DNA of 64,000 nucleotides from assembly GCF_030384885.1 (NCBI RefSeq), contig NZ_CP128613.1; one strand, written 5' to 3'. Of this stretch, positions 4,250-30,974 are shown in pieces. Position 1 is the stretch's first letter, and the number at the start of each line of letters is the position of its first letter. This DNA is from Escherichia coli (GTDB lineage Bacteria > Pseudomonadota > Gammaproteobacteria > Enterobacterales > Enterobacteriaceae). The notes under the pieces were generated by a model. The model saw only the letters and a list, made by a program, of their open reading frames with translations. It was not told the origin of the DNA and ran no database searches. The translations under genes were made by a program, and so were the position numbers.

Positions 4250-5164
4250 ATGAGTCGCTCACAAAATTTACGCCACAATGTGATTAACCAGGTCATTGAT
4301 GATATGGCGCGGGGTCACATCCCTTCCCCACTTCCATCGCAAAGTGCGCTGGCGGAAATGTACAACATCAGCCGCACCACAGTGCGCCATATTCTCAGCC
4401 ACTTACGCGAATGCGGCGTCTTGACGCAGGTTGGAAACGACTATGTTATTGCGCGTAAACCTGACCATGATGACGGTTTCGCCTGTACTACCGCTTCAAT
4501 GAGTGAACAAAACAAAGTGTTTGAGCAGGCTTTTTTCACGATGATAAACCAGCGCCAGTTACGCCCAGGGGAAACTTTTTCTGAACTGCAACTGGCTCGG
4601 GCCGCGGGTGTCAGCCCGGTTGTAGTAAGAGAATATCTTTTAAAATTCGGTCGTTATAATCTTATTCAGAGCGAAAAGCGCGGCCAGTGGAGCATGAAGC
4701 AATTCGATCAATCCTACGCCGAGCAGCTGTTTGAGCTACGCGAAATGCTCGAAACTCATTCACTTCAGCACTTTCTCAACCTACCTGATCATGATCCCCG
4801 CTGGCTGCAGGCGAAAACCATGCTCGAACGTCATCGGCTACTGCGTGACAACATCGGCAATAGCTTCCGCATGTTCTCGCAACTTGACAGAGATTTTCAC
4901 TCCTTACTGCTTTCAGCTGCCGATAATATCTTTTTTGATCAATCGCTTGAGATCATCTCAGTCATCTTTCATTTTCACTATCAATGGGACGAAAGCGATC
5001 TTAAACAGCGCAATATCATTGCCGTCGATGAGCATATGACCATTCTCAGCGCTCTGATTTGCCGCAGTGACCTGGATGCCACCCTTGCGCTCCGTAACCA
5101 TTTGAATTCAGCTAAACAATCAATGATTCGATCCATTAATGAGAACACGCGTTATGCTCATTAA
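4250..5164 (+). CDS. lgoR: GntR-family transcriptional regulator of L-galactonate utilisation
   Basis: 304-aa ORF with N-terminal winged-HTH and FCD-type C-terminal domain; divergent from lgoD; recognised as LgoR/YjjM. Confidence 0.9.
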   Translation: MSRSQNLRHNVINQVIDDMARGHIPSPLPSQSALAEMYNISRTTVRHILSHLRECGVLTQVGNDYVIARKPDHDDGFACTTASMSEQNKVFEQAFFTMINQRQLRPGETFSELQLARAAGVSPVVVREYLLKFGRYNLIQSEKRGQWSMKQFDQSYAEQLFELREMLETHSLQHFLNLPDHDPRWLQAKTMLERHRLLRDNIGNSFRMFSQLDRDFHSLLLSAADNIFFDQSLEIISVIFHFHYQWDESDLKQRNIIAVDEHMTILSALICRSDLDATLALRNHLNSAKQSMIRSINENTRYAH

Positions 5165-6787: not shown

Positions 6788-8443
6788 TTAAAACGTTTCC
6801 CAGTTCTCTCCGCTATCTGCCACGGCCATTTTACGCGGCGCAGCTGGCGTCACGGTTTTTACCACAGCCGATGTTTCACGCTGCTGTTGCTGAATCCGGA
6901 ACACTGCCACAGCTTCGGTCAGGCGACTGGCCTGCTCTTCCAGCGCGGCGGCGGCAGCGGCAGATTCTTCCACCAGCGCAGCGTTCTGTTGAGTTACCCG
7001 GTCCATCTCAGCAACCGCTAAGCCAACCTGATCGATACCACGGCTCTGCTCATCAGAAGCCGAAGCAATTTCGCCCATAATGTCCGTCACGCGGGTCACA
7101 GCGCTGACAATCTCTGCCATGGTTTCCCCGGCGCTTTCGACCAGCGTAGAGCCAACATCCACTTTGCCCACCGAGTCTTCAATCAGGCTTTTAATTTCGC
7201 GAGCCGCCTGAGCGCTACGCTGGGCCAGATTACGCACTTCTCCCGCAACCACCGCAAAACCGCGCCCTTGCTCACCCGCACGCGCTGCTTCAACCGCCGC
7301 GTTCAAAGCCAGAATATTGGTCTGGAAGGCAATGCCGTCAATTACGCTGATAATATCGGCGATTTTCTGCGAGCTGGTGGAGATATCGCGCATGGTCTGC
7401 ACCACGTTATCCACCACTTTGCCGCCACGTTGCGCCGTTTCGGAAGCACTTAACGCCAGGTGGCTGGCCTGACGCGCATTTTCGGCGTTCTGCTTCACCG
7501 TTGCGGTCAGTTGCTCCATGCTGGCTGCCGTCTCTTCCAGCGAAGCGGCCTGTTGCTCGGTGCGCGAAGAAAGATCGTTATTGCCGGTGGCGATTTCGCT
7601 GGCACCGCTATAGATAGCATTGGCCCCGTTGCGCACATCACCGACGGTACGCATCAGCTCTCCCTGCATATGGCGCAAACTCTCTGCCAGTTGCCCCATC
7701 TCATTAGAACCATCCACCTCAATCGGTTTCACCAGATCGCCACCTGCAATATGACGAATGCTGTCAATCAGGCGATTCATTGGCGCTACCAACGAGGCTT
7801 TAATACCGAACCAGACGGCGAAGATGACTGCCAGTACGACGATCATCACGCCCACCAGAATCCACATCGCCTGGCTGTAGGAGGCATTGTTATCGCTGAC
7901 AGCGATATCATAGAGCCGATCGTTTTGCTCCATGTAAGCCACATACTGCTTCTCGAAACCGTCCTGATATCCCTGAGTCGGCTGATCAAAGAATTCGTTG
8001 ATTTTGCCTGCACCTAACAGTTGGATCAGTTCCGCCAGCGCATTGTGATAAATATCGTAATTACGTTTGATCTCTGCCGCTGCGGCGGTGCTCTGACGCG
8101 GGTCACGCGGCAATGCTTCGTAATCCGCCCAGTTTTTTTCCGCCTGTTTCAGCGAAATACTGGCACTCTGCATCAGCTCGGCAACGGTTGAACCGCTACC
8201 AATATTGTTCTGATCCATCATGTAGCGGATACCTGCGCGGTTGAGGGTGTTACGCGTCTGCAACAACGCGACCCAGCTGCCATTCAGCGTGGATTGCTGT
8301 TGGCGAATGGTTTGTAAAACAGTGAAATTTTCTTTGTCATTCTTTAAGGCATTAAAGAACAGACCGCCTGATGTCAGTTGTAAAAGGCCAAAAACGGCCA
8401 AAACCAGCAGTAAGCTGGTCACGATCTTGATACGTTTTAACAT
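6788..8443 (-). CDS. tsr: Serine chemoreceptor Tsr (methyl-accepting chemotaxis protein I)
   Basis: 551 aa from ATG ([12 protein letters not shown]...); HAMP and MCP signalling domains; C-terminal NWETF pentapeptide; the ORF track extends 5 codons further to a GTG. Confidence 0.95.
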
Positions 8444-9497: not shown

Positions 9498-10967
9498 TTA
9501 TGCTTCTTCAGGTTTGGTGATCACGACACTCTGGTTTTCACGCTCATTGGTGATAATAGCCAGAGCTTCTTCCCGGCTGACCTGACTTGCTGGCGTTACC
9601 AGCGTCACCACTACGCCAGCGAACAGGCTGCCCAGCACTGACGGAATACACGGGTTACCCCAGTAAGCCAGCCAGTCGGCATTCATCAGCACCACAATGG
9701 ACATCACCATACCGCTCACTAACGCCGCCAGCGCGCCCTGCCAGTTAAAGCGTAGCCAGAAGCGACCGAGAATCGAGCAGATAAACAGCCCGGACATCAG
9801 CATCGAAATCATTTTGGTAATGTAGCTGATGATGTCATTAGAGGTCAGAGCAAAGACCAGCGCCAGGCCAATAACAAAGGTCAACATACAGCGTGAGTAA
9901 GTAATGGCCTTGTCCTCCGGCGGCATTCTGCCGGTAATCATGGTGTAGACGTCGCGCATCATAATCGCCACCGCCGCGATGGCATCGGAGCTGGCGGAAG
10001 ACATGGTGGCTGAAAGCCCGGCAATCAGCACCACCAGCCCAAGAATGGCAGGTAAGAAACTGGTCGCGAACAAGAAGGCGTAGTTGCTGTTTTCCAGATT
10101 TGGGTTCATGGTGAACGCCGCCATGCCGATAATGGCAGGCAGAATCGAGAAGAACAGATACAACACGCCAGTAATAACAAATGAACGCCGTACAGAGGGA
10201 ACGTCTTTTCCCGAGTAAATACGCTGGCGATAAGATGGTGTGGCCAGTACGCCGACACCAATAACCAGCGCCAGCGAAAGCGCAGGCAGCACGCCCATTT
10301 TATCAATCGCAAACAGGCTCATCGCTTTTGGGTCCATCGCCTGTTCAATCGCACTCCAGCCACCAACGTGAACAACGGCAAGAATAGCCATTAATATAAA
10401 GCCAAAGAACAGAATTAGGGCCTGAATAGTATCTGTCCACACTACCGCCGAATAACCGCCGATAATAACGTAAATCGCAAAAGCTAAGGCAATAATTAAT
10501 TTTGCCACCGTAAGATCAATACCTGTTGCCCAGGCAAGATACATACTTCCACCTAATATATGCGCCCCCAGCCAGCCAATAGAGGCAATAAATATCATCA
10601 GGCCGACAATATTTTTAATTAAATGGCTGCCGCCAGTATAATAAGATATTTCTTCACTCATGGTCATAAAACGTAATTTACGTACCGGTGCAAACAGCCA
10701 CGCCACCAGTAATATACCTACGGCCCCACCGACGCCATAAAGCATTCCGGCCCAGCCATTGCTGTAGCCAAAGCCCACTGCGCCCATACTGGAACCCGTG
10801 CCAACCATCGTGGCAACGGTTGACCCCAGCGTCAGAAACAGCGGCAGCGAACGCCCGCCCAGCAGAAAATCTTCTCCGCTTTTCTGATTACGAGAAACAA
10901 ACCAACCAAGCCAAATCATGGCGATGGCATAAATAATAAAGCCGACTAAAAAGATATGACTGTTCAT
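9498..10967 (-). CDS. Sodium:solute symporter (SSS) family transporter
   Basis: 489-aa polytopic membrane protein with SSS-type N-terminal pattern (LLGGRSLPLFLTLGSTVAT...). Confidence 0.8.
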   Translation of the reverse strand: MNSHIFLVGFIIYAIAMIWLGWFVSRNQKSGEDFLLGGRSLPLFLTLGSTVATMVGTGSSMGAVGFGYSNGWAGMLYGVGGAVGILLVAWLFAPVRKLRFMTMSEEISYYTGGSHLIKNIVGLMIFIASIGWLGAHILGGSMYLAWATGIDLTVAKLIIALAFAIYVIIGGYSAVVWTDTIQALILFFGFILMAILAVVHVGGWSAIEQAMDPKAMSLFAIDKMGVLPALSLALVIGVGVLATPSYRQRIYSGKDVPSVRRSFVITGVLYLFFSILPAIIGMAAFTMNPNLENSNYAFLFATSFLPAILGLVVLIAGLSATMSSASSDAIAAVAIMMRDVYTMITGRMPPEDKAITYSRCMLTFVIGLALVFALTSNDIISYITKMISMLMSGLFICSILGRFWLRFNWQGALAALVSGMVMSIVVLMNADWLAYWGNPCIPSVLGSLFAGVVVTLVTPASQVSREEALAIITNERENQSVVITKPEEA

Positions 10968-11069
10968 AATTCACATCCTGCCAGTAGAGAGAGAATAATG
11001 TAAGAGTTCCCGGAGTGCTGAATGTATTCAGCACTCAATTGCGGTCTGTTTTTTTAATTCTTAAATTTA

Positions 11070-11459
11070 TTAGCGGGTCGCGTTATAACAGGTCACATCG
11101 ACTTCGACTTTACAATCGACAACCAGATCAGCCACACAACAAATACGTGCAGGCGGATTCTCGCCAAAAAATTCTCTGAATACTTTATTAAATGACTGGA
11201 AATAGCGGGCGTCGGTCAGGATCACTTTCACGTGAACCACATCCGCCAGGCTATAACCGGTTTCAGTCATGATGTCGACACAGTTTTGGATCGCCAGTCG
11301 TGACTGTTCAACGATTCCGCCTTCTATCACTTCACCGTTTTTCATGGGTGTTTGCCCGGAGACGTACAGCCAGCCGCCCGCCTCAACCGCCCTGGCAAAA
11401 GGCAAATGCTGCCCGCCAGTGCCTGTTCCACCTTCCGTACCGTAACGTTTAATGCTCAT
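11070..11459 (-). CDS. RidA/YjgF-family reactive enamine/imine deaminase
   Basis: About 129 aa from the ATG preceded by AAGGAG; RidA-like fold signature; 10 nt downstream of the deacylase stop. Confidence 0.8.
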   Translation of the reverse strand: MSIKRYGTEGGTGTGGQHLPFARAVEAGGWLYVSGQTPMKNGEVIEGGIVEQSRLAIQNCVDIMTETGYSLADVVHVKVILTDARYFQSFNKVFREFFGENPPARICCVADLVVDCKVEVDVTCYNATR

Positions 11460-11468
11460 ATTCACTCC

Positions 11469-12911
11469 TTAATGTGAGGTCTGCCGGCGCAGGAAGCGTC
11501 CCGCACGGCCTGTAATATGTTTATCGCGACCATAGCTCATAACGCCGTTCACCATCACCGCCTCAATGCCATCTGCCGGGCGTTTGGGATCAGAAAAGCT
11601 GGCAACATCACGAATGGTTTGTGGATCGAACAACACCAGGTCCGCAAAATAGCCAACTTTCACCAGTCCACGCTGGGGCAGGCGAAAACGGCTGGCAGAA
11701 AGCCCGGTCATTTTGTGGATAGCCGTGGTCAGTGGGAATAAGCCTTCATCACGGCAATAGTGGCCCAGCACACGAGGGAAGGCGCCCCATAAACGTGGAT
11801 GCGGCATGGGATCATTGGGCAGGCCGTCAGAGCCAATCATACTGACCGGATAACTCAACACTCGGCGGACGTCGCGCTCGTCCATGTTGTAATAGATAGC
11901 CCCGGCAGGCATTAGCAGCTTCGCGGCCTCCAGCATACTCATCTGCCAGTCGATGGCGATTTGCGCCAGTGTTTTTCCGGCCTGCTGCGGATGTGTTTGT
12001 GACCAGGTGATCACAATATCGAATTCGTCGGTGACTTGTTTGAGATCCAGCGTTGATGAACTGGCTGAGTAAGGGTAGACATCGCAGCCAATTTCCTGGT
12101 GTTGACGCATTTGGTCAAAAAAAGCCAACGTTTCTTTTGTCCGCCCCCAGTTTTTCGCCCCGGCGCATTTATGGTGGGAAACCACGACAGGCACTTTGCC
12201 ATGACGCCCAATACGAAACGCCTCATCCAGGGCATCGAGAATCGGTTCAAATTCAGAACGCAGATGGGTGGTATAAACGCCCTTCTCACCGGCTAATTCT
12301 TCCGCCAGCGCCATGACTTCTTCGGTAGTCGCCTGAAATGCTGTGGCATAGGCCAGCCCGGAACTTAACCCCAGCGCCCCCTGACTCAACGCCAGACGTA
12401 AGTCGGCACGCATAGCGGCAATTTCATCCACCGTCGCCGGGCGAAACAGGTCGTCCATATGGTTATTACGCAGCGCCGTATGACCAATCAGCGTGCCAAC
12501 GTTCAGTGACGGCCTGGCTGCTTCCACTGCCTGGGCATAGCTTTCAACGGTAGGATAAATAAAGTGCTCTGCTTCCCCCAGCAGATTCATCGGGTCAGGA
12601 ACTTCGCCTTTCATTTTCGCCGACGCCGCACTGATCCCGCAGTTACCGACAATCACCGTGGTGATCCCCTGGCTGATCTTTGGCAGATATTCCGGGATGC
12701 GAATAACGTTGATATCGTCATGGGTATGAACGTCGATAAACCCTGGTGCCAGCACCCGCCCTTCCCCGTCAATGACCTGCTGCGCCGTAACGTTAAGCGC
12801 AGGGGCAATATCGACAATCCGATCACCTGTTATTGCCACGTCACCGCGAAATTCAGGGCCGCCGCTACCGTCGATAACGGTCACATTTTTGATTAACCAG
12901 TCAACCTGCAT
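11469..12911 (-). CDS. N-acyl-D-amino-acid deacylase (D-aminoacylase; metal-dependent amidohydrolase)
   Basis: About 480 aa; N-terminus (VDWLIKNVTVIDGSGG...GFIDVHTHDD) typical of D-aminoacylases; start placed at the ATG with a GGAG upstream, while the track extends to a GTG 3 codons further. Confidence 0.8.
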   Translation of the reverse strand: MQVDWLIKNVTVIDGSGGPEFRGDVAITGDRIVDIAPALNVTAQQVIDGEGRVLAPGFIDVHTHDDINVIRIPEYLPKISQGITTVIVGNCGISAASAKMKGEVPDPMNLLGEAEHFIYPTVESYAQAVEAARPSLNVGTLIGHTALRNNHMDDLFRPATVDEIAAMRADLRLALSQGALGLSSGLAYATAFQATTEEVMALAEELAGEKGVYTTHLRSEFEPILDALDEAFRIGRHGKVPVVVSHHKCAGAKNWGRTKETLAFFDQMRQHQEIGCDVYPYSASSSTLDLKQVTDEFDIVITWSQTHPQQAGKTLAQIAIDWQMSMLEAAKLLMPAGAIYYNMDERDVRRVLSYPVSMIGSDGLPNDPMPHPRLWGAFPRVLGHYCRDEGLFPLTTAIHKMTGLSASRFRLPQRGLVKVGYFADLVLFDPQTIRDVASFSDPKRPADGIEAVMVNGVMSYGRDKHITGRAGRFLRRQTSH

Positions 12912-13111
12912 GTTCGTCACTCCATTTCTGCAATGGTGACAAGTTAACCATTTACAAGGACGAAAAACAGTGGAAAACTACGCAAAACCCAGATGATTTT
13001 CTGATACTTTTATTCATAAATCATAAGATAAATAAACTAAATATTTATATTTCATTTAGTTACAAATGATACTCATATCCGATACGGTGAAAAACTTAAA
13101 AGGTGAATGTT

Positions 13112-14332
13112 ATGAAATACCACTCTGAACCTCTGGTTCCCCATAAATCTGCCCTGATGCAAATGCCCGCAAATCTCCTTGCCGAAGATGTCTGTTTACC
13201 TGCCGCGATCATTAAAAAGCAGGCCCTGGAGAACAACATTACGTGGATGCAGCGTTATGCTGACGCGCGCGGCGTTTCACTGGCACCGCACGGTAAAACG
13301 ACCATGACGCCGTGGATTTTTCAGGCGCAGCAGGCCGCAGGTGCCTGGGCAATAGGTGTCGGTAGCGCATGGCAGGCTGGTGCGGCAATGGCGAGCGGTA
13401 TTCAGCGAGTGCTGATGGTTAACCAGTTGGTCGGCAAGGCGAATATGCAGTTGATTGCCCAGTTGCAACGGCATTACCCGACGGTCGATTTTATCTGCTG
13501 TATCGACAGCATTGAGAACGCCCGCGCTTTGTCTGCCTTTTTTGCCAGTCAGCAACAGACACTGAACGTGATGATTGAGTTGGGTGTTCCCGGCGGACGC
13601 TGTGGTTGCCGCTCAACGGATGCCGCACTGGCACTGGCTAAACAGGCGGCCCAATTACCAGGGCTACGTCTGCGCGGGCTTGAGTTATATGAAGGTGTTT
13701 TACACGGTGACGATCCACAACCGCAGGTAGAAGCACTGCTGCGGGATGCCGCACAACTGGCCTGTGATATGGCAAGTCTGGTTGATGGCGAGTTTATTCT
13801 CACCGGAGCAGGCACTGTCTGGTATGACGTGGTGTGCAATATCTGGCTGGCGGCAGAAAAGCCTGATAACTGCCGCATTGTTATTCGCCCTGGCTGCTAC
13901 ATCACTCACGACACCGGGATCTACGACGCGGCACAACAACAGTTGCTTGCCCGCGATCCTGTGGCCTGCGATCTGGCAGGCGATCTCACATCTGCGCTGG
14001 AACTGGTCGCCATGGTGCAATCGGTGCCGGAAGCTGATCGTGCGGTGGTAAATTTTGGTAAGCGTGATTGCGCCTTCGACGCCGGACTGCCGCAACCAGT
14101 CGCCCACTATCGCAACGGCAAATCACTGGCATTTGATCCACAGGCGATTCGCAGTACAGGCATTATGGATCAGCACTGCATGTTGCAACTGTCAGCTAAT
14201 AGCGACGTGCAAGTGGGGGATATTCTGGTGTTTGGCACATCGCATCCGTGCCTGACCTTCGACAAATGGAAAACGTTGTTATTGGCTGATGACGACTACA
14301 ACGTACTGGCGGAATTAGACACTCTCTTCTAA
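13112..14332 (+). CDS. DSD1-family PLP enzyme (alanine-racemase-N-like; D-serine / D-threo-3-hydroxyaspartate dehydratase or D-threonine aldolase type)
   Basis: About 406 aa; PLP-lysine motif APHGKT near the N-terminus; start ATG 13112 preceded by AGGTGA; divergent from the deacylase operon. Confidence 0.7.
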   Translation: MKYHSEPLVPHKSALMQMPANLLAEDVCLPAAIIKKQALENNITWMQRYADARGVSLAPHGKTTMTPWIFQAQQAAGAWAIGVGSAWQAGAAMASGIQRVLMVNQLVGKANMQLIAQLQRHYPTVDFICCIDSIENARALSAFFASQQQTLNVMIELGVPGGRCGCRSTDAALALAKQAAQLPGLRLRGLELYEGVLHGDDPQPQVEALLRDAAQLACDMASLVDGEFILTGAGTVWYDVVCNIWLAAEKPDNCRIVIRPGCYITHDTGIYDAAQQQLLARDPVACDLAGDLTSALELVAMVQSVPEADRAVVNFGKRDCAFDAGLPQPVAHYRNGKSLAFDPQAIRSTGIMDQHCMLQLSANSDVQVGDILVFGTSHPCLTFDKWKTLLLADDDYNVLAELDTLF

Positions 14333-14337
14333 GAATA

Positions 14338-14370
14338 CCCCTTCGGTTAATTATCGAAGGGGCATTTTTA
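14338..14370 (+). terminator. Rho-independent terminator after the DSD1-family gene
   Basis: CCCCTTCG-N9-CGAAGGGG followed by a T-run. Confidence 0.6.
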
Positions 14371-14415
14371 TTGTGATCTCAATCACATATCCACCCGACG
14401 AATAATTCTTGCCCA

Positions 14416-14444
14416 ACCGCTTACCGCCATTCCTGACCGCTTAC
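14416..14444. promoter_or_regulatory. Direct repeat ACCGCTTAC-N11-ACCGCTTAC upstream of btsT; candidate BtsR (YehT) response-regulator operator
   Basis: Two identical 9-mers about 160-185 bp upstream of the btsT start; resembles the ACC(G/A)CT(C/T)A direct-repeat site described for YehT at the yjiY promoter. Confidence 0.6.
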
Positions 14445-14599
14445 GTCCCTAAAATAACCACTCAGTTATTTACCTTACTTTACGCGCGCGTAACTCTGGC
14501 AACATCACTGCAGGATAGCGGTCAATTTACCTCCTCAAACGCAACGCAAACCTAGAACGGCTTCGGCCAACTATTAATCAATACATGCCAGGTTTTACT

Positions 14600-16750
14600 A
14601 TGGATACTAAAAAGATATTCAAGCACATACCCTGGGTGATTCTCGGAATCATCGGTGCATTCTGCCTCGCGGTAGTTGCATTACGTCGGGGGGAGCACGT
14701 CAGTGCCCTGTGGATCGTGGTCGCCTCTGTGTCGGTGTATCTGGTGGCTTATCGCTACTACAGTCTGTACATCGCCCAGAAAGTGATGAAACTCGACCCC
14801 ACGCGCGCGACGCCTGCGGTTATTAACAATGACGGTCTGAACTATGTTCCGACCAACCGTTACGTGTTGTTTGGTCACCACTTCGCCGCTATCGCCGGTG
14901 CGGGTCCGCTGGTTGGTCCGGTTCTCGCCGCGCAGATGGGCTACCTGCCTGGCACTCTGTGGCTGCTGGCGGGGGTAGTGCTGGCCGGTGCGGTACAGGA
15001 CTTTATGGTGCTGTTTATCTCCTCTCGCCGTAACGGTGCATCTCTCGGTGAGATGATCAAAGAAGAGATGGGGCCAGTGCCGGGGACTATCGCGCTGTTT
15101 GGCTGTTTCTTAATCATGATCATCATCCTCGCCGTTCTGGCGCTGATTGTGGTTAAAGCCCTGGCCGAAAGTCCGTGGGGTGTCTTCACCGTTTGCTCAA
15201 CCGTACCAATTGCGCTGTTTATGGGTATCTACATGCGCTTTATCCGTCCGGGACGTGTAGGTGAAGTCTCTGTTATTGGTATCGTGCTGCTGGTTGCCTC
15301 TATCTACTTCGGTGGCGTAATTGCTCACGATCCGTACTGGGGTCCGGCACTGACCTTTAAAGACACCACCATTACCTTCGCGCTGATTGGCTATGCGTTT
15401 GTTTCCGCACTGCTGCCGGTGTGGCTGATCCTCGCACCGCGCGACTATCTGGCAACCTTCCTGAAAATCGGCGTTATCGTCGGCCTGGCGCTGGGTATCG
15501 TGGTGTTGAACCCGGAACTGAAAATGCCTGCGATGACGCAGTACATTGACGGTACTGGCCCGCTGTGGAAAGGCGCTCTGTTCCCGTTCCTGTTCATCAC
15601 CATCGCCTGTGGTGCGGTATCTGGCTTCCACGCGCTGATCTCTTCCGGTACGACGCCGAAACTGCTGGCTAACGAAACCGACGCGCGTTTCATTGGCTAC
15701 GGCGCAATGCTGATGGAGTCCTTCGTGGCGATTATGGCGCTGGTTGCTGCATCCATCATCGAACCGGGTCTTTACTTCGCGATGAATACCCCGCCTGCGG
15801 GCCTTGGCATCACCATGCCTAACCTGCATGAAATGGGTGGCGAGAACGCGCCGATCATCATGGCGCAGCTGAAAGACGTTACCGCACACGCGGCAGCGAC
15901 TGTCAGCTCCTGGGGCTTCGTGATTTCGCCAGAGCAGATCCTGCAAACCGCGAAAGACATTGGTGAGCCTTCTGTCCTGAACCGTGCAGGTGGTGCGCCG
16001 ACGCTGGCGGTAGGTATCGCTCACGTGTTCCACAAAGTGCTGCCGATGGCTGACATGGGCTTCTGGTATCACTTCGGTATTCTGTTCGAAGCCCTGTTCA
16101 TCCTGACCGCGCTGGATGCGGGTACCCGTTCTGGCCGCTTTATGCTGCAAGACCTGCTGGGTAACTTCATCCCGTTCCTGAAAAAAACCGATTCTCTGGT
16201 TGCCGGTATCATCGGTACTGCGGGCTGTGTGGGTCTGTGGGGCTACCTGCTGTATCAGGGCGTGGTCGATCCGCTGGGCGGCGTTAAGAGCCTGTGGCCG
16301 CTGTTCGGTATCTCCAACCAGATGCTGGCAGCCGTAGCGCTGGTACTGGGCACCGTTGTGCTGATTAAGATGAAGCGCACCCAATACATCTGGGTGACTG
16401 TTGTTCCGGCTGTATGGCTGCTTATCTGCACCACCTGGGCGCTGGGCCTGAAACTGTTCAGCACCAACCCGCAGATGGAAGGCTTCTTCTATATGGCAAG
16501 CCAGTACAAAGAGAAGATTGCTAACGGTACTGACCTGACGGCACAGCAGATTGCCAACATGAACCACATCGTTGTGAACAACTACACCAACGCGGGCCTG
16601 AGTATTCTGTTCCTGATTGTGGTGTACAGCATCATCTTCTACGGTTTCAAAACCTGGTTGAAGGTGCGTAACAGCGACAAACGTACTGACAAAGAAACAC
16701 CGTACGTTCCAATCCCGGAAGGCGGCGTGAAGATCTCTTCGCACCACTAA
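14600..16750 (+). CDS. btsT: Pyruvate/H+ symporter BtsT (CstA family)
   Basis: 716 aa from ATG (MDTKKIFKHIPWVILG...); large polytopic CstA-family transporter; recognised as BtsT/YjiY. Confidence 0.92.
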   Translation: MDTKKIFKHIPWVILGIIGAFCLAVVALRRGEHVSALWIVVASVSVYLVAYRYYSLYIAQKVMKLDPTRATPAVINNDGLNYVPTNRYVLFGHHFAAIAGAGPLVGPVLAAQMGYLPGTLWLLAGVVLAGAVQDFMVLFISSRRNGASLGEMIKEEMGPVPGTIALFGCFLIMIIILAVLALIVVKALAESPWGVFTVCSTVPIALFMGIYMRFIRPGRVGEVSVIGIVLLVASIYFGGVIAHDPYWGPALTFKDTTITFALIGYAFVSALLPVWLILAPRDYLATFLKIGVIVGLALGIVVLNPELKMPAMTQYIDGTGPLWKGALFPFLFITIACGAVSGFHALISSGTTPKLLANETDARFIGYGAMLMESFVAIMALVAASIIEPGLYFAMNTPPAGLGITMPNLHEMGGENAPIIMAQLKDVTAHAAATVSSWGFVISPEQILQTAKDIGEPSVLNRAGGAPTLAVGIAHVFHKVLPMADMGFWYHFGILFEALFILTALDAGTRSGRFMLQDLLGNFIPFLKKTDSLVAGIIGTAGCVGLWGYLLYQGVVDPLGGVKSLWPLFGISNQMLAAVALVLGTVVLIKMKRTQYIWVTVVPAVWLLICTTWALGLKLFSTNPQMEGFFYMASQYKEKIANGTDLTAQQIANMNHIVVNNYTNAGLSILFLIVVYSIIFYGFKTWLKVRNSDKRTDKETPYVPIPEGGVKISSHH

Positions 16751-16758
16751 CCGTGTTT

Positions 16759-16784
16759 AGCCCCGCTTCGGCGGGGCTTTGTTC
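16759..16784 (+). terminator. GC-rich hairpin (AGCCCCGC-TTCG-GCGGGGCT) after btsT; terminator or attenuator before yjiX
   Basis: Stem-loop with GNRA-like loop followed by a T-rich stretch. Confidence 0.5.
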
Positions 16785-16799
16785 TTATCAGAGTGAACT

Positions 16800-17003
16800 A
16801 TGTTTGGTAACTTAGGACAGGCAAAAAAATATCTCGGCCAGGCGGCAAAGATGTTGATTGGCATTCCAGACTACGACAACTACGTCGAGCATATGAAGAC
16901 CAACCATCCCGACAAGCCGTACATGAGCTATGAAGAATTCTTCCGCGAACGCCAGAACGCGCGCTACGGCGGCGATGGTAAAGGCGGTATGCGCTGTTGT
17001 TAA
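16800..17003 (+). CDS. yjiX: Small protein YjiX (DUF466)
   Basis: 67-aa ORF ([21 protein letters not shown]...) recognised as YjiX; conserved position after btsT. Confidence 0.85.
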
Positions 17004-17013
17004 TGGAGAGAGC

Positions 17014-17970
17014 ATGAACCCGATTGCAGTTACCCTACTCACCGGTTTTTTAGGCGCAGGCAAAACCACCCTGCTGCGCCATATTCTTAATGAACAGCAC
17101 GGCTACAAAATTGCCGTGATTGAAAACGAATTCGGCGAAGTCTCCGTTGATGATCAACTGATTGGCGACCGCGCCACGCAGATCAAAACGCTGACCAACG
17201 GCTGCATCTGTTGTTCGCGCTCCAACGAGCTGGAGGACGCGCTACTCGACCTGCTGGATAATCTCGACAAGGGCAATATTCAGTTCGACCGTCTGGTCAT
17301 TGAATGCACAGGCATGGCCGATCCCGGCCCGATTATTCAGACCTTTTTCTCCCATGAGATTTTATGCCAGCGTTACCTGCTGGACGGCGTGATTGCGCTG
17401 GTGGATGCGGTACATGCCGATGAGCAGATGAACCAGTTCACCATCGCCCAGTCACAGGTTGGCTACGCCGACCGCATTCTGCTGACCAAAACCGACGTCG
17501 CAGGCGAAGCAGAAAAACTGCGTGAACGCCTGGCGCGCATCAACGCCCGCGCACCGGTCTACACCGTCACCCACGGCGACATCGATCTGGGCCTGCTGTT
17601 CAACACCAACGGTTTTATGCTGGAAGAAAACGTCGTCAGCACCAAACCACGTTTCCACTTTATCGCGGATAAACAAAACGATATTTCGTCGATTGTGGTG
17701 GAACTGGATTACCCGGTAGATATCAGCGAAGTTTCCCGCGTGATGGAAAACCTGCTGCTGGAGTCGGCGGATAAACTGCTACGTTACAAAGGGATGCTGT
17801 GGATTGACGGCGAACCTAATCGCCTGTTGTTCCAGGGCGTCCAGCGCCTCTACAGCGCCGACTGGGACCGCCCGTGGGGCGATGAAAAACCGCATAGCAC
17901 TATGGTGTTTATCGGGATTCAGCTGCCGGAGGATGAGATTCGGGCAGCGTTTGCGGGGTTGAGGAAGTAA
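17014..17970 (+). CDS. yjiA: GTPase YjiA (COG0523 / CobW-like G3E metallochaperone family)
   Basis: 318 aa from ATG preceded by GGAGAG; P-loop GFLGAGKTT and GCICCS metal-binding motif; the track ORF starts further upstream and overlaps yjiX. Confidence 0.92.
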   Translation: MNPIAVTLLTGFLGAGKTTLLRHILNEQHGYKIAVIENEFGEVSVDDQLIGDRATQIKTLTNGCICCSRSNELEDALLDLLDNLDKGNIQFDRLVIECTGMADPGPIIQTFFSHEILCQRYLLDGVIALVDAVHADEQMNQFTIAQSQVGYADRILLTKTDVAGEAEKLRERLARINARAPVYTVTHGDIDLGLLFNTNGFMLEENVVSTKPRFHFIADKQNDISSIVVELDYPVDISEVSRVMENLLLESADKLLRYKGMLWIDGEPNRLLFQGVQRLYSADWDRPWGDEKPHSTMVFIGIQLPEDEIRAAFAGLRK

Positions 17971-24420: not shown

Positions 24421-25805
24421 GTTTCAACTCAACATCAAAAGAATTAATTGAGCAAAATATCAATGGGTTACTTTCAAGCCATGAGAGCTGGTTACGTATT
24501 CCAATGGATTCCGTAGCAAACATCACAAACGGTTTTGCTTTTAAGTCGGCAGAATTTAATAATCGTAAAGATGGTGTACCATTAATTAGAATTCGTGATG
24601 TTCTTAAAGGTAGTACATCGACTTATTACTCGGGGCAAATTCCTGAGGGATATTGGGTATATCCCGAAGACTTAATCGTGGGAATGGATGGTGATTTTAA
24701 TACAACTATATGGCGCTCGGAGCCCGCTCTGTTAAATCAACGAGTATGTAAAATCGAAGTTCAGGAAGACAAATACAATAAAAGATTTTTCTATCATGCC
24801 TTACCAGGATATTTATCCGCAATCAATGCAAATACGTCCTCGGTTACTGTAAAGCATCTTTCTTCCAGGACACTTCAAGATACCCTACTTCCGTTGCCAC
24901 CACTTGCCGAACAAAAAATCATCGCTGAAAAACTCGATACGCTGCTGGCGCAGGTAAACAGCACCAAAGCACGTCTTGAGCAAATCCCACAAAACCTGAA
25001 ACGTTTTCGTCAGGCGGTGCTTCATGTTGCAGTGAGCGGGAAATTAACTGAAAAATGGCGATTAGAAAATGCAACTTTAGAAAACTCATACGAATGGAAG
25101 GTGCAATCTTTATCTGATCTTGGTGTTTTAGCTCGAGGTAAATCTAAACATCGACCTAGAAACGATCCTCGCCTATTTGGGGATAAGTATCCATTTATTC
25201 AAACAGGTGAAGTTGCCAATAGTTCAGGAAGAATTAAAAGAGCAAATAAATTTTATAGTGAGTTTGGTTTATCACAAAGCAAGCTATTTCCAAAAGATAC
25301 CTTATGTATAACTATTGCTGCCAACATTGCGGATACAGCCATATTAGAGATTGAGGCATGTTTCCCGGACAGTGTCGTTGGTTTCATTTCTGATAAAGAT
25401 AAATCTCATGTATCCTTTGTGAAGTATCTAATTGATGTTAACAAAGATAATCTTGAAGCATTTGCACCAGCTACAGCACAAAAAAATATTAACTTAAAGG
25501 TTTTAAACGAACTTAAACTTCCTATTCCTGATATTAAAGAACAAGCCGAAATCGTTCGCCGCGTCGAGCAACTCTTCGCCTACGCCGACACCATAGAAAA
25601 ACAGGTCAACAACGCCCTGGCCCGCGTCAACAACCTGACGCAATCCATCCTGGCAAAAGCGTTCCGTGGTGAACTCACCGCCCAGTGGCGGGCCGAAAAC
25701 CCGGATTTGATCAGCGGAGAAAACAGCGCCGCCGCGTTGCTGGAAAAAATCAAAGCTGAACGCGCAGCCAGCGGGGGTAAAAAAGCCTCACGTAAAAAAT
25801 CCTGA
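24417..25805 (+). CDS. hsdS: Type I restriction-modification specificity subunit; EcoKI-family scaffold with non-K-12 target-recognition domains
   Basis: 462-aa ORF; ATG overlaps the hsdM stop (ATGA); central and C-terminal conserved regions (LPPLAEQKIIAEKLDTLLAQV..., EQAEIVRRVEQLFAYADTIEKQ...) match the EcoKI family as I recall it, but the two variable regions do not, and they are AT-rich. Confidence 0.9.
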   Translation: MSFNSTSKELIEQNINGLLSSHESWLRIPMDSVANITNGFAFKSAEFNNRKDGVPLIRIRDVLKGSTSTYYSGQIPEGYWVYPEDLIVGMDGDFNTTIWRSEPALLNQRVCKIEVQEDKYNKRFFYHALPGYLSAINANTSSVTVKHLSSRTLQDTLLPLPPLAEQKIIAEKLDTLLAQVNSTKARLEQIPQNLKRFRQAVLHVAVSGKLTEKWRLENATLENSYEWKVQSLSDLGVLARGKSKHRPRNDPRLFGDKYPFIQTGEVANSSGRIKRANKFYSEFGLSQSKLFPKDTLCITIAANIADTAILEIEACFPDSVVGFISDKDKSHVSFVKYLIDVNKDNLEAFAPATAQKNINLKVLNELKLPIPDIKEQAEIVRRVEQLFAYADTIEKQVNNALARVNNLTQSILAKAFRGELTAQWRAENPDLISGENSAAALLEKIKAERAASGGKKASRKKS

Positions 25806-25818
25806 ACATTATTTTCTG

Positions 25819-25842
25819 GCGCACCTTTCCGGTGCGCTTTTT
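25819..25842 (+). terminator. Rho-independent terminator of the hsdMS operon
   Basis: GCGCACC-TTTCC-GGTGCGC followed by TTTTT. Confidence 0.65.
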
Positions 25843-25939
25843 ATTATTTCACGCCAATCATAACCCACATAAATATATTTAAATCATTCCAGAAATTGCC
25901 CATTTTATTCTATTTTTAGCTGGACTTTCCCCATATTTA

Positions 25940-25955
25940 CTGATGATATATCCAG
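25940..25955. promoter_or_regulatory. Candidate LexA (SOS) box upstream of symE
   Basis: CTGATGATATATCCAG fits CTG-N10-CAG with an AT-rich centre; symE is known to be SOS-induced. Confidence 0.55.
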
Positions 25956-25959
25956 GTAT

Positions 25960-26045
25960 TTAGCGCGGTGCGGATGTGCGCCAACACACCCGCACCGCTA
26001 ATCACAATCCCTATTTCTAAGGAATAGTAATCATGACTGACACGC
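25960..26045 (-). ncRNA. symR: Approximate position of SymR antisense sRNA (overlaps symE 5-prime UTR and start codon)
   Basis: Placed from established knowledge of the symE/symR locus, not from a sequence signal I can delimit exactly. Confidence 0.35.
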
Positions 26046-26374
26046 ATTCTATTGCACAACCGTTCGAAGCAGAAGTCTCCCCGGCAAATAACCGTCAATT
26101 AACCGTGAGTTATGCGAGTCGCTACCCGGATTACAGCCGTATTCCCGCCATCACCCTGAAAGGTCAGTGGCTGGAAGCCGCCGGTTTTGCCACCGGCACG
26201 GCGGTAGATGTCAAAGTGATGGAAGGCTGTATTGTCCTCACCGCCCAACCACCCGCCCCCGAAGAGAGCGAACTGATGCAGTCACTGCGCCAGGTGTGCA
26301 AACTGTCAGCGCGTAAACAAAAGCAGGTGAAGGAGTTTATTGGGGTGATTGCCGGTAAACAGAAAGTCGCGTAA
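26033..26374 (+). CDS. symE: SymE, SOS-induced toxin-like protein (AbrB-fold, type I TA-like module)
   Basis: 113-aa ORF ([38 protein letters not shown]...) recognised as SymE. Confidence 0.92.
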
Positions 26375-26535
26375 CAGCGTTTACTCCCGGTTAACCACCG
26401 GGAGCCTTCCACTGACTCAATAGAAACTTTCCCCCTCAGTAAATATTTACCAGTCTGATTTTGCAGTAAAAATCTATTGTTTCAGTACGTTGCGAAAGCG
26501 ATAATAGAGGCTTAGCAATGAGGAAGGCATATCTT

Positions 26536-27915
26536 ATGGAATCTATTCAACCCTGGATTGAAAAATTTATTAAGCAAGCACAGCAACAACGTTCGCAATC
26601 CACTAAAGATTATCCAACGTCTTACCGTAACCTGCGAGTAAAATTGAGTTTCGGTTATGGTAATTTTACGTCTATTCCCTGGTTTGCATTTCTTGGAGAA
26701 GGTCAGGAAGCTTCTAACGGTATATATCCCGTTATTCTCTATTATAAAGATTTTGATGAGTTGGTTTTGGCTTATGGTATAAGCGACACGAATGAACCAC
26801 ATGCCCAATGGCAGTTCTCTTCAGACATACCTAAAACAATCGCAGAGTATTTCCAGGCAACTTCAGGTGTATATCCTAAAAAATACGGACAGTCCTATTA
26901 CGCCTGTTCCCAAAAAGTCTCACAGGGTCTTGATTATACCCGGTTTGCCTCCATGCTGGACAACATAATCAACGACTATAAATTAATATTTAATTCTGGC
27001 AAGAGTGTTATTCCACCTATGTCAAAAACTGAATCATACTGTCTGGAAGATGCGTTAAATGATTTGTTTATCCCTGAAACCACGATAGAGACGATACTCA
27101 AACGATTAACCATCAAAAAAAATATTATCCTCCAGGGGCCGCCCGGCGTTGGAAAAACCTTTGTTGCACGCCGTCTGGCTTACTTGCTGACAGGGGAAAA
27201 GGCTCCGCAACGCGTCAATATGGTTCAGTTCCATCAATCTTATAGCTATGAGGATTTTATACAGGGCTATCGTCCGAATGGTGTCGGCTTCCGACGTAAA
27301 GACGGTATATTTTACAATTTTTGTCAGCAAGCTAAAGAGCAGCCAGAGAAAAAGTATGTTTTTATTATAGATGAAATCAATCGTGCCAATCTCAGTAAAG
27401 TATTTGGCGAAGTGATGATGTTAATGGAACATGATAAACGAGGTGAAAACTGGTCTGTTCCCTTAACCTACTCCGAAAACGATGAAGAACGATTCTATGT
27501 TCCGGAGAATGTTTATATTATCGGTTTAATGAATACTGCCGATCGCTCTCTGGCCGTTGTTGATTATGCCCTGCGCAGACGATTTTCTTTCATAGATATT
27601 GAGCCAGGTTTTGATACGCCACAGTTCCGGAATTTTTTACTGAATAAAAAAGCAGAACCTTCATTTGTTGAATCTTTATGCCAAACAATGAACGAGTTAA
27701 ACCAGGAAATCAGCAAAGAGGCCACTATCCTTGGGAAAGGATTCCGCATTGGGCATAGTTACTTCTGCTCCGGGTTGGAAGATGGCACATCTCCTGATAC
27801 GCAATGGCTTAAGGAAATTGTGATGACGGATATCGCCCCTTTACTCGAAGAATATTTCTTTGATGATCCCTATAAACAACAGATATGGACCGACAAATTA
27901 TTAGGTGACTCATAG
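26536..27915 (+). CDS. mcrB: McrB, GTPase (AAA+) subunit of the 5-methylcytosine-dependent restriction enzyme McrBC
   Basis: 459 aa from ATG with AGGAAGG upstream (MESIQPWIEKF...); P-loop GPPGVGKT; AT-rich composition. Confidence 0.93.
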   Translation: MESIQPWIEKFIKQAQQQRSQSTKDYPTSYRNLRVKLSFGYGNFTSIPWFAFLGEGQEASNGIYPVILYYKDFDELVLAYGISDTNEPHAQWQFSSDIPKTIAEYFQATSGVYPKKYGQSYYACSQKVSQGLDYTRFASMLDNIINDYKLIFNSGKSVIPPMSKTESYCLEDALNDLFIPETTIETILKRLTIKKNIILQGPPGVGKTFVARRLAYLLTGEKAPQRVNMVQFHQSYSYEDFIQGYRPNGVGFRRKDGIFYNFCQQAKEQPEKKYVFIIDEINRANLSKVFGEVMMLMEHDKRGENWSVPLTYSENDEERFYVPENVYIIGLMNTADRSLAVVDYALRRRFSFIDIEPGFDTPQFRNFLLNKKAEPSFVESLCQTMNELNQEISKEATILGKGFRIGHSYFCSGLEDGTSPDTQWLKEIVMTDIAPLLEEYFFDDPYKQQIWTDKLLGDS

Positions 27916-28961
27916 TGGAACAGCCCGTGATACCTGTCCGTAATATCTATTACATGCTTACCTATGCATGGGGTTATTTACAGGAAATTAAGCAGGCCGA
28001 CCTTGAAGCCATTCCCGGTAACAATCTTCTTGATATCCTGGGGTATGTATTAAATAAAGGGGTTTTACAGCTTTCACGCCGAGGGCTTGAGCTTGATTAC
28101 AATCCTAATACAGAAATCATTCCTGGCATCAAAGGGCGAATAGAGTTTGCTAAAACAATACGCGGCTTCCATCTTAATCATGGGAAAACCGTCAGTACGT
28201 TTGATATGCTTAATGAAGACACGCTGGCTAACCGAATTATAAAAAGCACATTAGCCATGTTAATTAAGCATGAAAAGTTAAACTCAGCCATCAGAGATGA
28301 AGCTCGTTCACTTTATAGAAAATTACCGGGCATTAGCACTCTTCATTTAACTCCACAGCATTTCAGCTATCTGAATGGCGGAAAAAATACGCGTTATTAT
28401 AAATTCGTTATAAGTGTCTGCAAGTTCATCGTCAATAATTCTATTCCAGGTCAAAACAAAGGACACTACCGTTTCTATGATTTTGAAAGAAACGAAAAAG
28501 AGATGTCATTACTTTATCAAAAGTTTCTTTATGAATTTTGCCGCCGTGAATTAACGTCTGCAAACACAACCCGCTCTTATTTAAAATGGGATGCATCGAG
28601 CATATCGGATCAGTCACTTAATTTGTTACCTCGAATGGAAACTGACATCACCATTCGCTCATCAGAAAAAATACTTATCGTTGACGCCAAATACTATAAG
28701 AGCATTTTTTCACGACGAATGGGCTCAGAAAAATTTCATTCTCAAAATCTTTATCAACTGATGAATTACTTATGGTCGTTAAAGCCTGAAAATGGCGAAA
28801 ACATAGGGGGCTTATTAATATACCCCCACGTAGATACCGCAGTGAAACATCGTTATAAAATTAATGGCTTCGATATTGGCTTGTGTACCGTCAATTTAGG
28901 TCAGGAATGGCCGTGTATACATCAAGAATTACTCGACATTTTCGGTGAATATCTCAAATAA
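27915..28961 (+). CDS. mcrC: McrC, nuclease subunit of McrBC
   Basis: 348-aa ORF with GTG start overlapping the mcrB stop (MEQPVIPVRNIYYMLTY...); recognised as McrC. Confidence 0.93.
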   Translation: MEQPVIPVRNIYYMLTYAWGYLQEIKQADLEAIPGNNLLDILGYVLNKGVLQLSRRGLELDYNPNTEIIPGIKGRIEFAKTIRGFHLNHGKTVSTFDMLNEDTLANRIIKSTLAMLIKHEKLNSAIRDEARSLYRKLPGISTLHLTPQHFSYLNGGKNTRYYKFVISVCKFIVNNSIPGQNKGHYRFYDFERNEKEMSLLYQKFLYEFCRRELTSANTTRSYLKWDASSISDQSLNLLPRMETDITIRSSEKILIVDAKYYKSIFSRRMGSEKFHSQNLYQLMNYLWSLKPENGENIGGLLIYPHVDTAVKHRYKINGFDIGLCTVNLGQEWPCIHQELLDIFGEYLK

Positions 28962-28983
28962 GCGGTAAGTTTTATAGAAAATA

Positions 28984-29010
28984 CCGCTCCCGACACCACA
29001 TCGGGAGCGG
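28984..29010 (-). terminator. Hairpin between convergent mcrC and the downstream minus-strand ORF pair
   Basis: CCGCTCCCGA-N7-TCGGGAGCGG; the T-rich flank is on the minus-strand side. Confidence 0.6.
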
Positions 29011-29017
29011 CTCATCA

Positions 29018-29353
29018 TCAGGAGGCGATCACCTCCACCAGCACATCCGTTGCCCAGCTCTCTTCACTGTTGACCACATTCCCTTCCTGACAAGCTTGAT
29101 CCATTTTGACTAACTGGAAAGAAACGTCATCGCGGAAATCAAAGTAATGCCATTGCGATGAAAAGTTGATGCGCCAGTAGCCCATCCCCTGATCGAAGCG
29201 GATCTTCAATACCTGACCATCCTCAAAAGTCACCGTCAGTTTACGATGGTGAGGGATATCGCGCGGCGAGTCGAACACCGTCAGTTCTACCGGCCTGCCC
29301 AGCGCAGCAGCAAACCACTGATCAGCGAAATCCTGAAAATCCGCTATGCTCAT
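29018..29353 (-). CDS. Hypothetical protein (111 aa), translationally coupled to the upstream 277-aa ORF
   Basis: ORF-track frame; its ATG overlaps the stop of the upstream ORF (ATGA); no family recognised by eye; may be a remnant of the yjiT/yjiV-type gene found at this position in K-12. Confidence 0.5.
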
Positions 29354-30183
29354 CCAGTCATGGAAAGGCCGGTTAGCAGTCCATTCAAAAAATGCGTTCC
29401 TGTTTCATCATCTAACGGTATTGGAAACTCGCTTCGCCAGGTAGGGTGAACCTTATCAAGCTGTTGTACTGGTTCTTTGTGATTTATTAGGTTGTGAGTA
29501 AGTACTAAGGAATTGAGGTTATCAGCCATATGACTGATAAGTTCTACAGAGGTATCTTCGCTAAAAACAGTAGGCAGCGCTGATTTTTCTATGACAGCTC
29601 TTGCCAGCGAAAGGGCTGAAAAACCTGACTGCTTTGCTTGCTCATATTGTCCAAGGATCCTGGAGAAAACAGCCAGAAAGCGACTGTCTGATTCTTTGAG
29701 TAGCCGGAAAGGTAAACCACCTTCACTGAATAATGTTCCGAGAAAATTGCGTCGTTCAGATTCATAAAATCGAATTGGGCGCAGCCAGTAATCTTCCATC
29801 CCTTTCGGTACGATAGTACCAAGCTCTGTGGCGGTGAATGAAATCCCTATTTTTTTATATATAGGGTCCCACGTCCATCCGCATTGCCGTTCATAATCCC
29901 TGCGGTACCACTCAGAGCAAAAAAGAACAAAACAGGCAGCAAAGTCCCTATTACATATATTAGATTGTGATTGACCGACTGCACGGAGTAGCTGCGTTAA
30001 TTGGGTATATTCATCATTGGTTGCATGATATTCATAAAGAGGACGGCCATCCGGTTGTCTCAACCCTCTAAGATTCACAAAGTTACTTAGCCAGGAAGTA
30101 CATTTTACCCATGAAATGTATTCTGATTGACCCAAAGCAAGCTCCTTAGAGATAAAAGATACAAAAACAAAACCCCACAACAT
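29350..30183 (-). CDS. Hypothetical protein (277 aa) in the mcrC-yjiS variable slot
   Basis: ORF-track frame; AT-rich relative to flanking core genes; no obvious Shine-Dalgarno; no family recognised by eye. Confidence 0.5.
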
Positions 30184-30633
30184 TTCTAATTTGAAAGAAA
30201 ACCTTTCAGAATATTGTATAGTTACTCAGGCGGCAACAACTATTTTTTCAGGTCGATACTATAAATCAATTTTAGATAAAAATGATATCAACCATCTATT
30301 AATCACAACTCATTTATCACCTGATTTTATAATTTCAAATGAAAATAAATCTCAAACAATCAAAAAGTATTCAGTAGCTGACATTTAACTTTCCAGGATA
30401 TAAAACAATTAGAGAAACTGCACAATAGCGAATAATGAGAGTTGTAAAGTCAGTCAAAAAACACAAGTAATCACTGTGCGTTTTTTGACCGTTATCGACA
30501 TGAGTTTAAAGAGGTTAGTGAAGAAGATATTCCTGTACACTCCATACCTATTGATGAATTGTCTCGGGAAAATTTTTATAACTTAATATAAAAACATAAA
30601 AACGTTTTATTATATATAAATCTATATCCCCCC

Positions 30634-30798
30634 TCACTCCACATCCTCCCTGCGTAACCCGATATCCCTCAACCGCTCATCACTCATCTGCTGTAACACG
30701 CGTCGGGTCTGCATTTGCCGCCGCCAACGCCTCACCGCCTGCCAGAGTTGCACAAGGCCGATAAACGGCGCTTTAGCTCTGTTTTCGTGAAATTCCAT
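30634..30798 (-). CDS. yjiS: YjiS (DUF1127) small protein
   Basis: 54 aa read from the minus strand (MEFHENRAKAPFIGLVQLWQAVRRWRRQMQTRRVLQQMSDERLRDIGLRREDVE); not in the supplied ORF track because it is under 60 aa. Confidence 0.8.
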   Translation of the reverse strand: MEFHENRAKAPFIGLVQLWQAVRRWRRQMQTRRVLQQMSDERLRDIGLRREDVE

Positions 30799-30974
30799 CT
30801 GCTGCCTCCTCATCTTTCAGAGGCTTCATCATCCGCCTTCTGGCAGTTCACAATACAGATGCAAATATTAGTTTTATTTAACATACAGACAGGTTAAAAC
30901 AACATCTGCATCCGGTTTTTTAGCCTCATCTGTACCGGTTTTTCTCTCTGTATGGTCCAAATAAGGAGTACAGC

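Follow-up and report, generated by a model that had tools for sequence, protein, structure and literature searches.

Druantia type III has been described in four preprints of May 2026 and in a study of a mycobacterial system (PMC13192584; 10.64898/2026.05.12.722862; 10.64898/2026.05.13.724758, among other sources). Both druH and druE are essential for defence (10.64898/2026.05.13.724758). DruH was placed in the YjiT family, of which the Escherichia coli representative is found in the immigration control region (PMC13192584), and consists of an N-terminal region followed by Ig-like domains from residue 257 and an ATP/ssDNA-binding C-terminal domain (PMC13192584; 10.64898/2026.05.12.722862). [quoted passage not shown] Defence was abolished by loss of the DruH N-terminal domain, of the remaining DruH, or of the PD subdomain of DruE (10.64898/2026.05.12.722862). 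SOS-dependent (mitomycin) toxicity has been reported for Druantia III (10.64898/2026.05.13.724758).

In E. coli strains SW070910 and 2013C-4282 the slot between yjiS and mcrC is occupied by yjiT, i.e., druH (1096 aa), and by the DEAD/DEAH helicase gene druE (2114 aa). The proteins of both strains span the DruH3 and DruE3 models of PADLOC end to end (DruE model positions 1-2053). The intact locus of 2013C-4282, here termed L007, was used as the reference on which the alleles were mapped. Here we describe the corresponding slot in a 64,000 nucleotide stretch of E. coli DNA (the window), where only two short ORFs are found. The two ORFs are very probably a pseudogenised Druantia type III operon (druH-druE, historically yjiT-yjiV) of the immigration control region, left behind by a deletion.

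Two ORFs Related to Druantia III Between mcrC and yjiS

The immigration control region of the window contains, in order, hsdS, symE, mcrB and mcrC on the plus strand, the two ORFs on the minus strand, and then yjiS, yjiR, an rpn gene and mdtM (ORF listing; Table 1). The original prediction described two minus-strand ORFs (277 and 111 aa) that overlap by ATGA and end at a hairpin facing mcrC, and this was confirmed by the ORF listing and the hairpin coordinates. The overlap is 4 nt (29350-29353), and the hairpin is located 7 nt past the ORF2 stop and 22 nt past the convergent mcrC stop (28961). It is the native terminator of druE, positioned between the convergent druE and mcrC genes. The slot varies between strains, as had also been proposed, and in K-12 it is filled by yjiT/yjiV in the form of a 4.4-kb remnant.

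The cassette had further been called AT-rich. This applies to ORF1 (42.4% GC) but not to ORF2 (51.5% GC against 49.4% for the whole window), and the truly AT-rich segment is the 450-bp spacer upstream of druH, which is 100% identical to that of the intact-locus strain 2013C-4282. A promoter scan upstream of druH gave no match to the strict sigma-70 consensus, and the promoter is presumed to lie in this spacer. A 65-aa ORF at 30191-30388 on its plus strand, opposite to druH, is probably a chance ORF in AT-rich DNA (29% GC). An Rfam scan of positions 28700-30900 returned only sub-threshold chance matches (archaeal snoRNA families and an L20 leader) and no RNA element. Further along, on the minus strand at 32629-33585, the window carries an Rpn-family recombination-promoting nuclease gene (equivalent to rpnD/yjiP-yjiQ) as an uninterrupted ORF of 318 aa, 3.3 kb from the deletion junction; the K-12 copy of rpnD/yjiP-yjiQ is annotated with an internal stop.

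TABLE 1. Features of the remnant locus in window coordinates, and ends of the deletions at the recurrent druE endpoint in L007 coordinates.
Feature or allele	Window position	Strand	Left end (L007)	Right end (L007)	Remark
Intrinsic terminator of druE	28983-29011	-			13-bp stem, 8 GC pairs, T-run
ORF2	29018-29353	-			111 aa as called (ORF listing)
'druE ('yjiV) 3' fragment	29018-29353	-			DruE residues 2004-2114 to the native stop; part of the second C-terminal PLD-like domain (10.64898/2026.05.12.722862)
ORF1	29350-30183	-			277 aa as called (ORF listing)
ORF1 out-of-frame tail	29350-29375	-			7 codons (TGLSMTG) and TGA; druE DNA in the wrong frame (three-frame translation)
Deletion junction	29374-29375	.			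TA common to both parental sequences (2-nt overlap of alignments)
druH' (yjiT')	29376-30135	-			Codons 1-254 of the 1096-codon druH
yjiS-druH spacer	30184-30633	-			28.7% GC; presumed druH-druE promoter region; outside the deletion
L016			4437	5061	
L012, L015			4437	5426	
XJ6-3, L026, L029			4445	5971	12-bp homology GTTACCGGRGCG
L031			4438	10999	
TB06053			4437	12430	
L013			4441	12579	
L018			4437	12714	
Window type			4437	12966	
HS-01			4437	13465	
L014, L017, L019			4437	into mdtM	

ORF1 was found to match the NCBIfam model NF038336, YjiT_fam ("STY4851/ECs_5259 family protein"; cutoff 150 bits), at 2.3e-101 over profile positions 1-237 of 1090 only, and DruH3 of PADLOC at 7e-139 over positions 3-257 of 1100. 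It aligned to DruH in the PDB (9tud_A) over residues 12-248 (E 1.3e-19), and a product identical to that of ORF1 carries Pfam YjiT_N and YjiT_2nd. By blastp, residues 17-275 of ORF1 align with DruH 1-259, and residues 17-270 correspond to DruH 1-254. The biological start of ORF1 is most likely the TTG at 30135, which gives a product of 261 aa and not 277 aa; the Shine-Dalgarno sequence AAGGAG is located ahead of it at 30142-30147, and the same TTG is the RefSeq start of intact yjiT. The fragment covers the N-terminal globular/alpha-helical domain and stops just short of the first Ig-like domain. Because the break at residue 254 falls almost exactly at the domain boundary at 257, a folded DruH N-terminal domain could be made, and it might conceivably have some residual or new activity. 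At most, a DruH N-terminal fragment of 261 aa would be expressed, from the native promoter.

ORF2 is 100% identical to DruE residues 2004-2114 of 2013C-4282 and matched DruE3 of PADLOC at 1.2e-21 over profile positions 1955-2053 of 2055, i.e., the last ~100. It had no match in NCBIfam, and ORF2 alone found nothing among the PDB sequences, where 9tu7 was reached only with intact DruE as the query. The druE-derived DNA extends to position 29375, so that the last 118 druE codons remain, with the ORF being called from the internal codon Met2004 through which the intact gene is read. On reading the sequence no Shine-Dalgarno was seen before this ATG. The exact 261-aa and 111-aa proteins have been deposited from E. 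coli among the hypothetical proteins as CAD6047753.1 and CAD6047769.1, the latter under the name "putative DEAD-box helicase-like protein".

Compared to the intact operon of 2013C-4282/SW070910, the window has the same slot, gene order and strand, the upstream region and the terminator are kept, and everything retained is 100% identical to 2013C-4282 at the nucleotide level. It lacks DruH 255-1096 and DruE from residue 1 to ~1996, i.e., DruH from codon 255 on and DruE up to codon Gly1996, which amounts to 77% of DruH and 95% of DruE. Missing are thereby the helicase, the MZB/zinc modules, the cap, the PD subdomain, the Ig-like domains and the DruH C-terminal domain. Both ORFs are homologous to the Druantia III proteins and are adjacent on one strand in the order druH to druE, whereas neither a full-length DruE (~2,000 aa with the SF2 DEAD/DEAH core and the MZB/DUF1998 zinc module) nor a full-length DruH (~1,100 aa with all three domain parts) is encoded, and of the latter residues 1-254 of 1096 are left. 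The Druantia III-A system of EDL933/ATCC 8739 (O-island 172; PDB 9tud for DruH and 9tu7 for DruE) is likewise built from two proteins, which belong to these families. The alignment of intact DruE of the immigration control region to 9tu7 runs over residues 5-2082, and that of ORF1 to 9tud over 12-248. That system, however, is found in another chromosomal island, is distant in sequence, and is intact and active, while the window holds a fragment.

A Single 8,528-bp Deletion Created the Remnant

Window positions 24939-29375 are 100% identical to L007 1-4437, and positions 29374-33409 are 100% identical to L007 12966-17001. The left flank is thus 4,437 bp long and the right flank 4,036 bp, with no mismatches to 2013C-4282 in 8.4 kb. 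Between them 8,528 bp (L007 4438-12965) are missing in the window. The locus originated by a single deletion of these 8,528 bp at TA. At this microhomology, codon Leu254 of druH became fused to the final base of codon Gly1996 in druE. Since there are no substitutions in the 8.4 kb of flanks compared to the intact-operon strain, the deletion is very young, and since an intact sister strain with such flanks exists it can be reconstructed exactly.

The ATGA overlap arose by chance from the frame in which the junction is read and is not a designed coupling signal, as the shifted druH frame meets a TGA that overlaps Met2004 of DruE. The same ATGA overlap with the 111-aa ORF was found in every allele broken at this point, whatever fragment lies upstream. 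The translational coupling named in the original prediction is therefore a by-product, the overlap being made by the frame at the deletion junction.

The identical junction was found in at least nine independent samples, among them one NCBI assembly (GCA_904842275.1, contig of 684 kb), one from ENA and seven from Logan that were built from separate sequencing runs. One of these has a different background, with flanks 98.9-99.7% identical to the reference flanks. The exact junction was not present in one piece in any of the 5,426 complete RefSeq genomes of E. coli. The two-ORF arrangement was seen only with near-identical flanks.

The locus is in kind already known: it is a degraded Druantia III, equivalent to yjiT/yjiV. 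The suggestion that an internal deletion had reduced one formerly larger gene to its two ends was right with respect to the deletion, but what remains is the 5' end of druH and the 3' end of druE, not the ends of one protein. A colinear alignment, which the original prediction had named as a refuting condition, was obtained, with ORF1 as the DruH N-terminus and ORF2 as the DruE C-terminus, but to two proteins of one operon and not to a single longer one. The guess that the module is defence-related was historically correct, since it derives from a former Druantia III system. CAD6047753.1 and CAD6047769.1 should be annotated as fragments of pseudogenes (druH' and 'druE) and counted neither as a defence system nor as orphan genes, and the same correction of annotation applies to K-12 yjiT/yjiV.

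Activity of the Remnant and Alternative Readings

Judged from the published genetics, the remnant almost certainly cannot provide Druantia defence and is inactive, because DruE has lost its helicase, zinc-binding, cap and dimerisation parts, and DruH its Ig-like domains together with the C-terminal domain that binds ssDNA and ATP. The assignment of essential parts is transferred here by homology, since the resident Druantia III is only distantly related to the versions tested (PDB DruH, E 1e-19). Given the SOS-dependent toxicity reported, the system may have been costly enough for its loss to be favoured. The locus is a clean natural example of the fast loss of a costly defence system.

We considered whether the two ORFs could instead be a functional accessory or defence module that is compact and translationally coupled, such as a pair resembling a toxin-antitoxin system, in line with the compact uncharacterised accessory module of the original prediction. 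In favour of such a module are the ATGA overlap, the shared terminator, the intact upstream region, the location in a defence island and the presence of the arrangement in at least nine samples. It is nevertheless extremely unlikely. Each ORF is a piece of a known and much larger protein, and the only PADLOC matches are to DruH and DruE, with YjiT_fam as the only significant NCBIfam match; neither ORF matched a toxin-antitoxin or other small-module family in NCBIfam or PADLOC. The last seven codons of ORF1 and the ATGA exist only through the frame at the junction, the identical ATGA is found in all other alleles broken here, and the ATG of ORF2 has no Shine-Dalgarno. As the flanks are identical to those of an intact strain, selection has had no time to shape a new module. 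The likeness to toxin-antitoxin-type ATGA-coupled operons is limited to a 4-nt stop/start overlap which in the window comes from a frameshifted junction; the products are not full-length members of small families, and the overlap is not conserved as a designed feature.

A related reading is that a fragment was kept as useful on its own, either the DruH N-terminus as a decoy or regulator, or the C-terminal 111 aa of DruE as an RpnS-like internal small protein. We consider this very unlikely. The break in DruH does lie at a domain boundary (254 compared to 257; PMC13192584), many independent alleles retain exactly the 111-aa C-terminal ORF, and gene-internal small antitoxins exist in the neighbouring rpn family (PMC10400941). 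However, selection for ORF2 cannot fix the nucleotide of the break, as breaks a few bases away give the same ORF, and the operon is broken elsewhere in K-12, BL21, LR-64-2 and others. Furthermore, DruE can do without its catalytically degenerate C-terminal PLD-like domains (10.64898/2026.05.12.722862), and Met2004, although present in intact DruE, is not preceded by a Shine-Dalgarno. That the junction is an assembly or sequencing artefact from a collapsed contig would agree with its absence from all 5,426 complete RefSeq genomes, but the same junction was recovered from NCBI, ENA and seven Logan assemblies of different runs, once in a different background (flanks 98.9-99.7% identical), and there is no collapsible repeat at the junction, only a 2-nt overlap. 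The probability of an artefact is next to negligible.

Decay of the Operon in Other E. coli Strains

Some part of the operon was found in 675 of 5,426 complete E. coli genomes, with at least 80% of it in one place in only 224. In strains K-12, BL21, TB06053, HS-01, LR-64-2, XJ6-3, GmM062, NCTC9038 and ZYB62 the operon is broken by other deletions or by IS insertions. At least a dozen independent decay paths of this operon coexist in E. coli.

K-12 yjiT/yjiV is an independently eroded version of the same operon. The yjiT'/yjiV' remnant is located at the same locus and derives from the same ancestral operon, and the DNA shared with the window is 99.5% identical on the druH side and 97.9% on the druE side. 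K-12 is missing two internal blocks (9847-12025 and 14179-17195 in coordinates of the locus L006), each at ~5 bp of microhomology, and retains ~4.4 kb comprising 503 druH codons and ~980 druE codons, whereas in the window a single larger block is absent and 1.1 kb is left.

In B and C strains (BL21, locus L001, and E. coli C) druE is truncated by IS1 at L007 ~7433. The DNA beyond the IS1 belongs to a different chromosomal region (mqo, yojI, alkB), which implies a large IS1-associated rearrangement. Strain LR-64-2 carries a 921-aa CDS (L004 11997-14762), annotated as an intact "STY4851/ECs_5259 family protein", that spans a deletion junction (L007 5554 to 12433). This CDS appears to be an in-frame fusion of the DruH N-terminal part to the DruE C-terminal part, and the annotation is misleading.

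TB06053, LR-64-2 and NCTC9038 are without mcrBC, and in these strains symE is joined directly to the position corresponding to window 28973/28974. This position, 44 bp past the druE stop and beside the terminator hairpin, marks the right-hand boundary of the mcrBC cassette, so that two recombination-active points bracket the 402-bp tail of druE.

A Recurrent Deletion Endpoint in druE

The druE-side end of the deletion, window position 29375 or L007 4437, is located on the plus strand between GGCCGGTTA and CCGG, within the context ...CATGGAAAGGCCGGTTA/CCGGGGCG..., where the slash denotes the break. At least ten different deletions were found to share the nucleotide end L007 4437 while their far ends differ, and they are mostly joined through TA. 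The alleles at this endpoint (L002, L005, L008, L012-L019, L026, L029 and L031) have far ends located 0.6 to 9 kb away inside the operon, or outside the operon (Table 1). Several backgrounds are involved, as the identity of the left flanks to L007 ranges from 95 to 100%, and the flanks fall into at least 4-5 distinct haplotypes. A nested series of alleles derived from a single ancestral deletion was rejected for the same reason, and also because the flanks of the window are those of the intact strain, so that the window did not inherit an older junction.

Most of the additional alleles were found through the 111-aa ORF, which introduces a bias toward breaks no more than a few tens of bases upstream of Met2004. 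This ascertainment cannot give a coincidence at a single nucleotide: a frameshift at ~4470 and an IS insertion at 4454-4461 were recovered in the same way, and the sampling window is at least 30-60 nt.

The endpoint is an 11-bp palindrome inside druE codons 1995-1998, CCGGT-T-ACCGG (CCGGTTACCGG), with the break at the 3' edge of the TTA loop of its small hairpin. The breaks at 7731 and 12966 are at the equivalent position in other small hairpins. With the exception of the hairpin at 12966, these hairpins are not unusually stable compared to shuffled sequence. With the 4437 site excluded, GGT(T)A was found at the junction in four of eight internal deletions, against 8% expected from a microhomology-matched random model (P ~0.002). 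Sites of the GGT(T)A type are L007 7731, 10015, 12218 and 12583 together with partner sites. Other ends were also reused, 12430/12433 with two partners and 12579-12584 with three.

It is possible, though rather doubtful, that the endpoint is a true site-specific breakage or recombination hot spot, at which an undescribed sequence- or structure-directed process repeatedly inactivates the resident Druantia III. Candidates would be a site cleaved by a nuclease or topoisomerase, an enzyme acting on single-stranded DNA that is directed by the hairpin, or template switching during replication. If the mechanism at the endpoint is specific, it would be relevant to an old question, namely how the immigration control region exchanges and loses its cassettes without obvious recombinases. 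In the literature on yjiT/yjiV we found only their use as neutral integration sites and no prior description of a hot spot.

Several known processes were considered as the cause of the break. The Chi sequence near the break, at ~29035, is reverse-oriented (CCACCAGC) and has the wrong polarity for RecBCD entering from the deleted side. A BstEII-type enzyme (GGTNACC, cut as G^GTNACC) was rejected as the sole cause, since fill-in gives GGTTAC and not GGTTA, and since none of the six further GGTNACC sites in the locus is a comparable hot spot. An IS-mediated adjacent deletion does not fit, as no IS is left at any junction and the one IS30-family insertion is 17-24 bp away. An integron-type G/TT crossover is inconsistent with the junctions, as the first T must come from the left parent. 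The Rpn nuclease has no sequence specificity in published data (PMC5350276), and to name the product of rpnD, encoded 3.3 kb away, as the agent is speculation.

Lesions other than deletions were also observed close to the endpoint. L032 (AP027474.1) carries the IS30-family element at L007 4454-4461, 17-24 bp from the proposed hot spot, and the alignments flanking it overlap by 8 bp. In L030 (ENA ERZ27275915) a 1-nt deletion at L007 ~4470, changing AGCGTATCCAGC to AGCGTACCAGC, interrupts an otherwise apparently complete druE and splits it into ORFs of 2003 and 111 aa with the same ATGA overlap.
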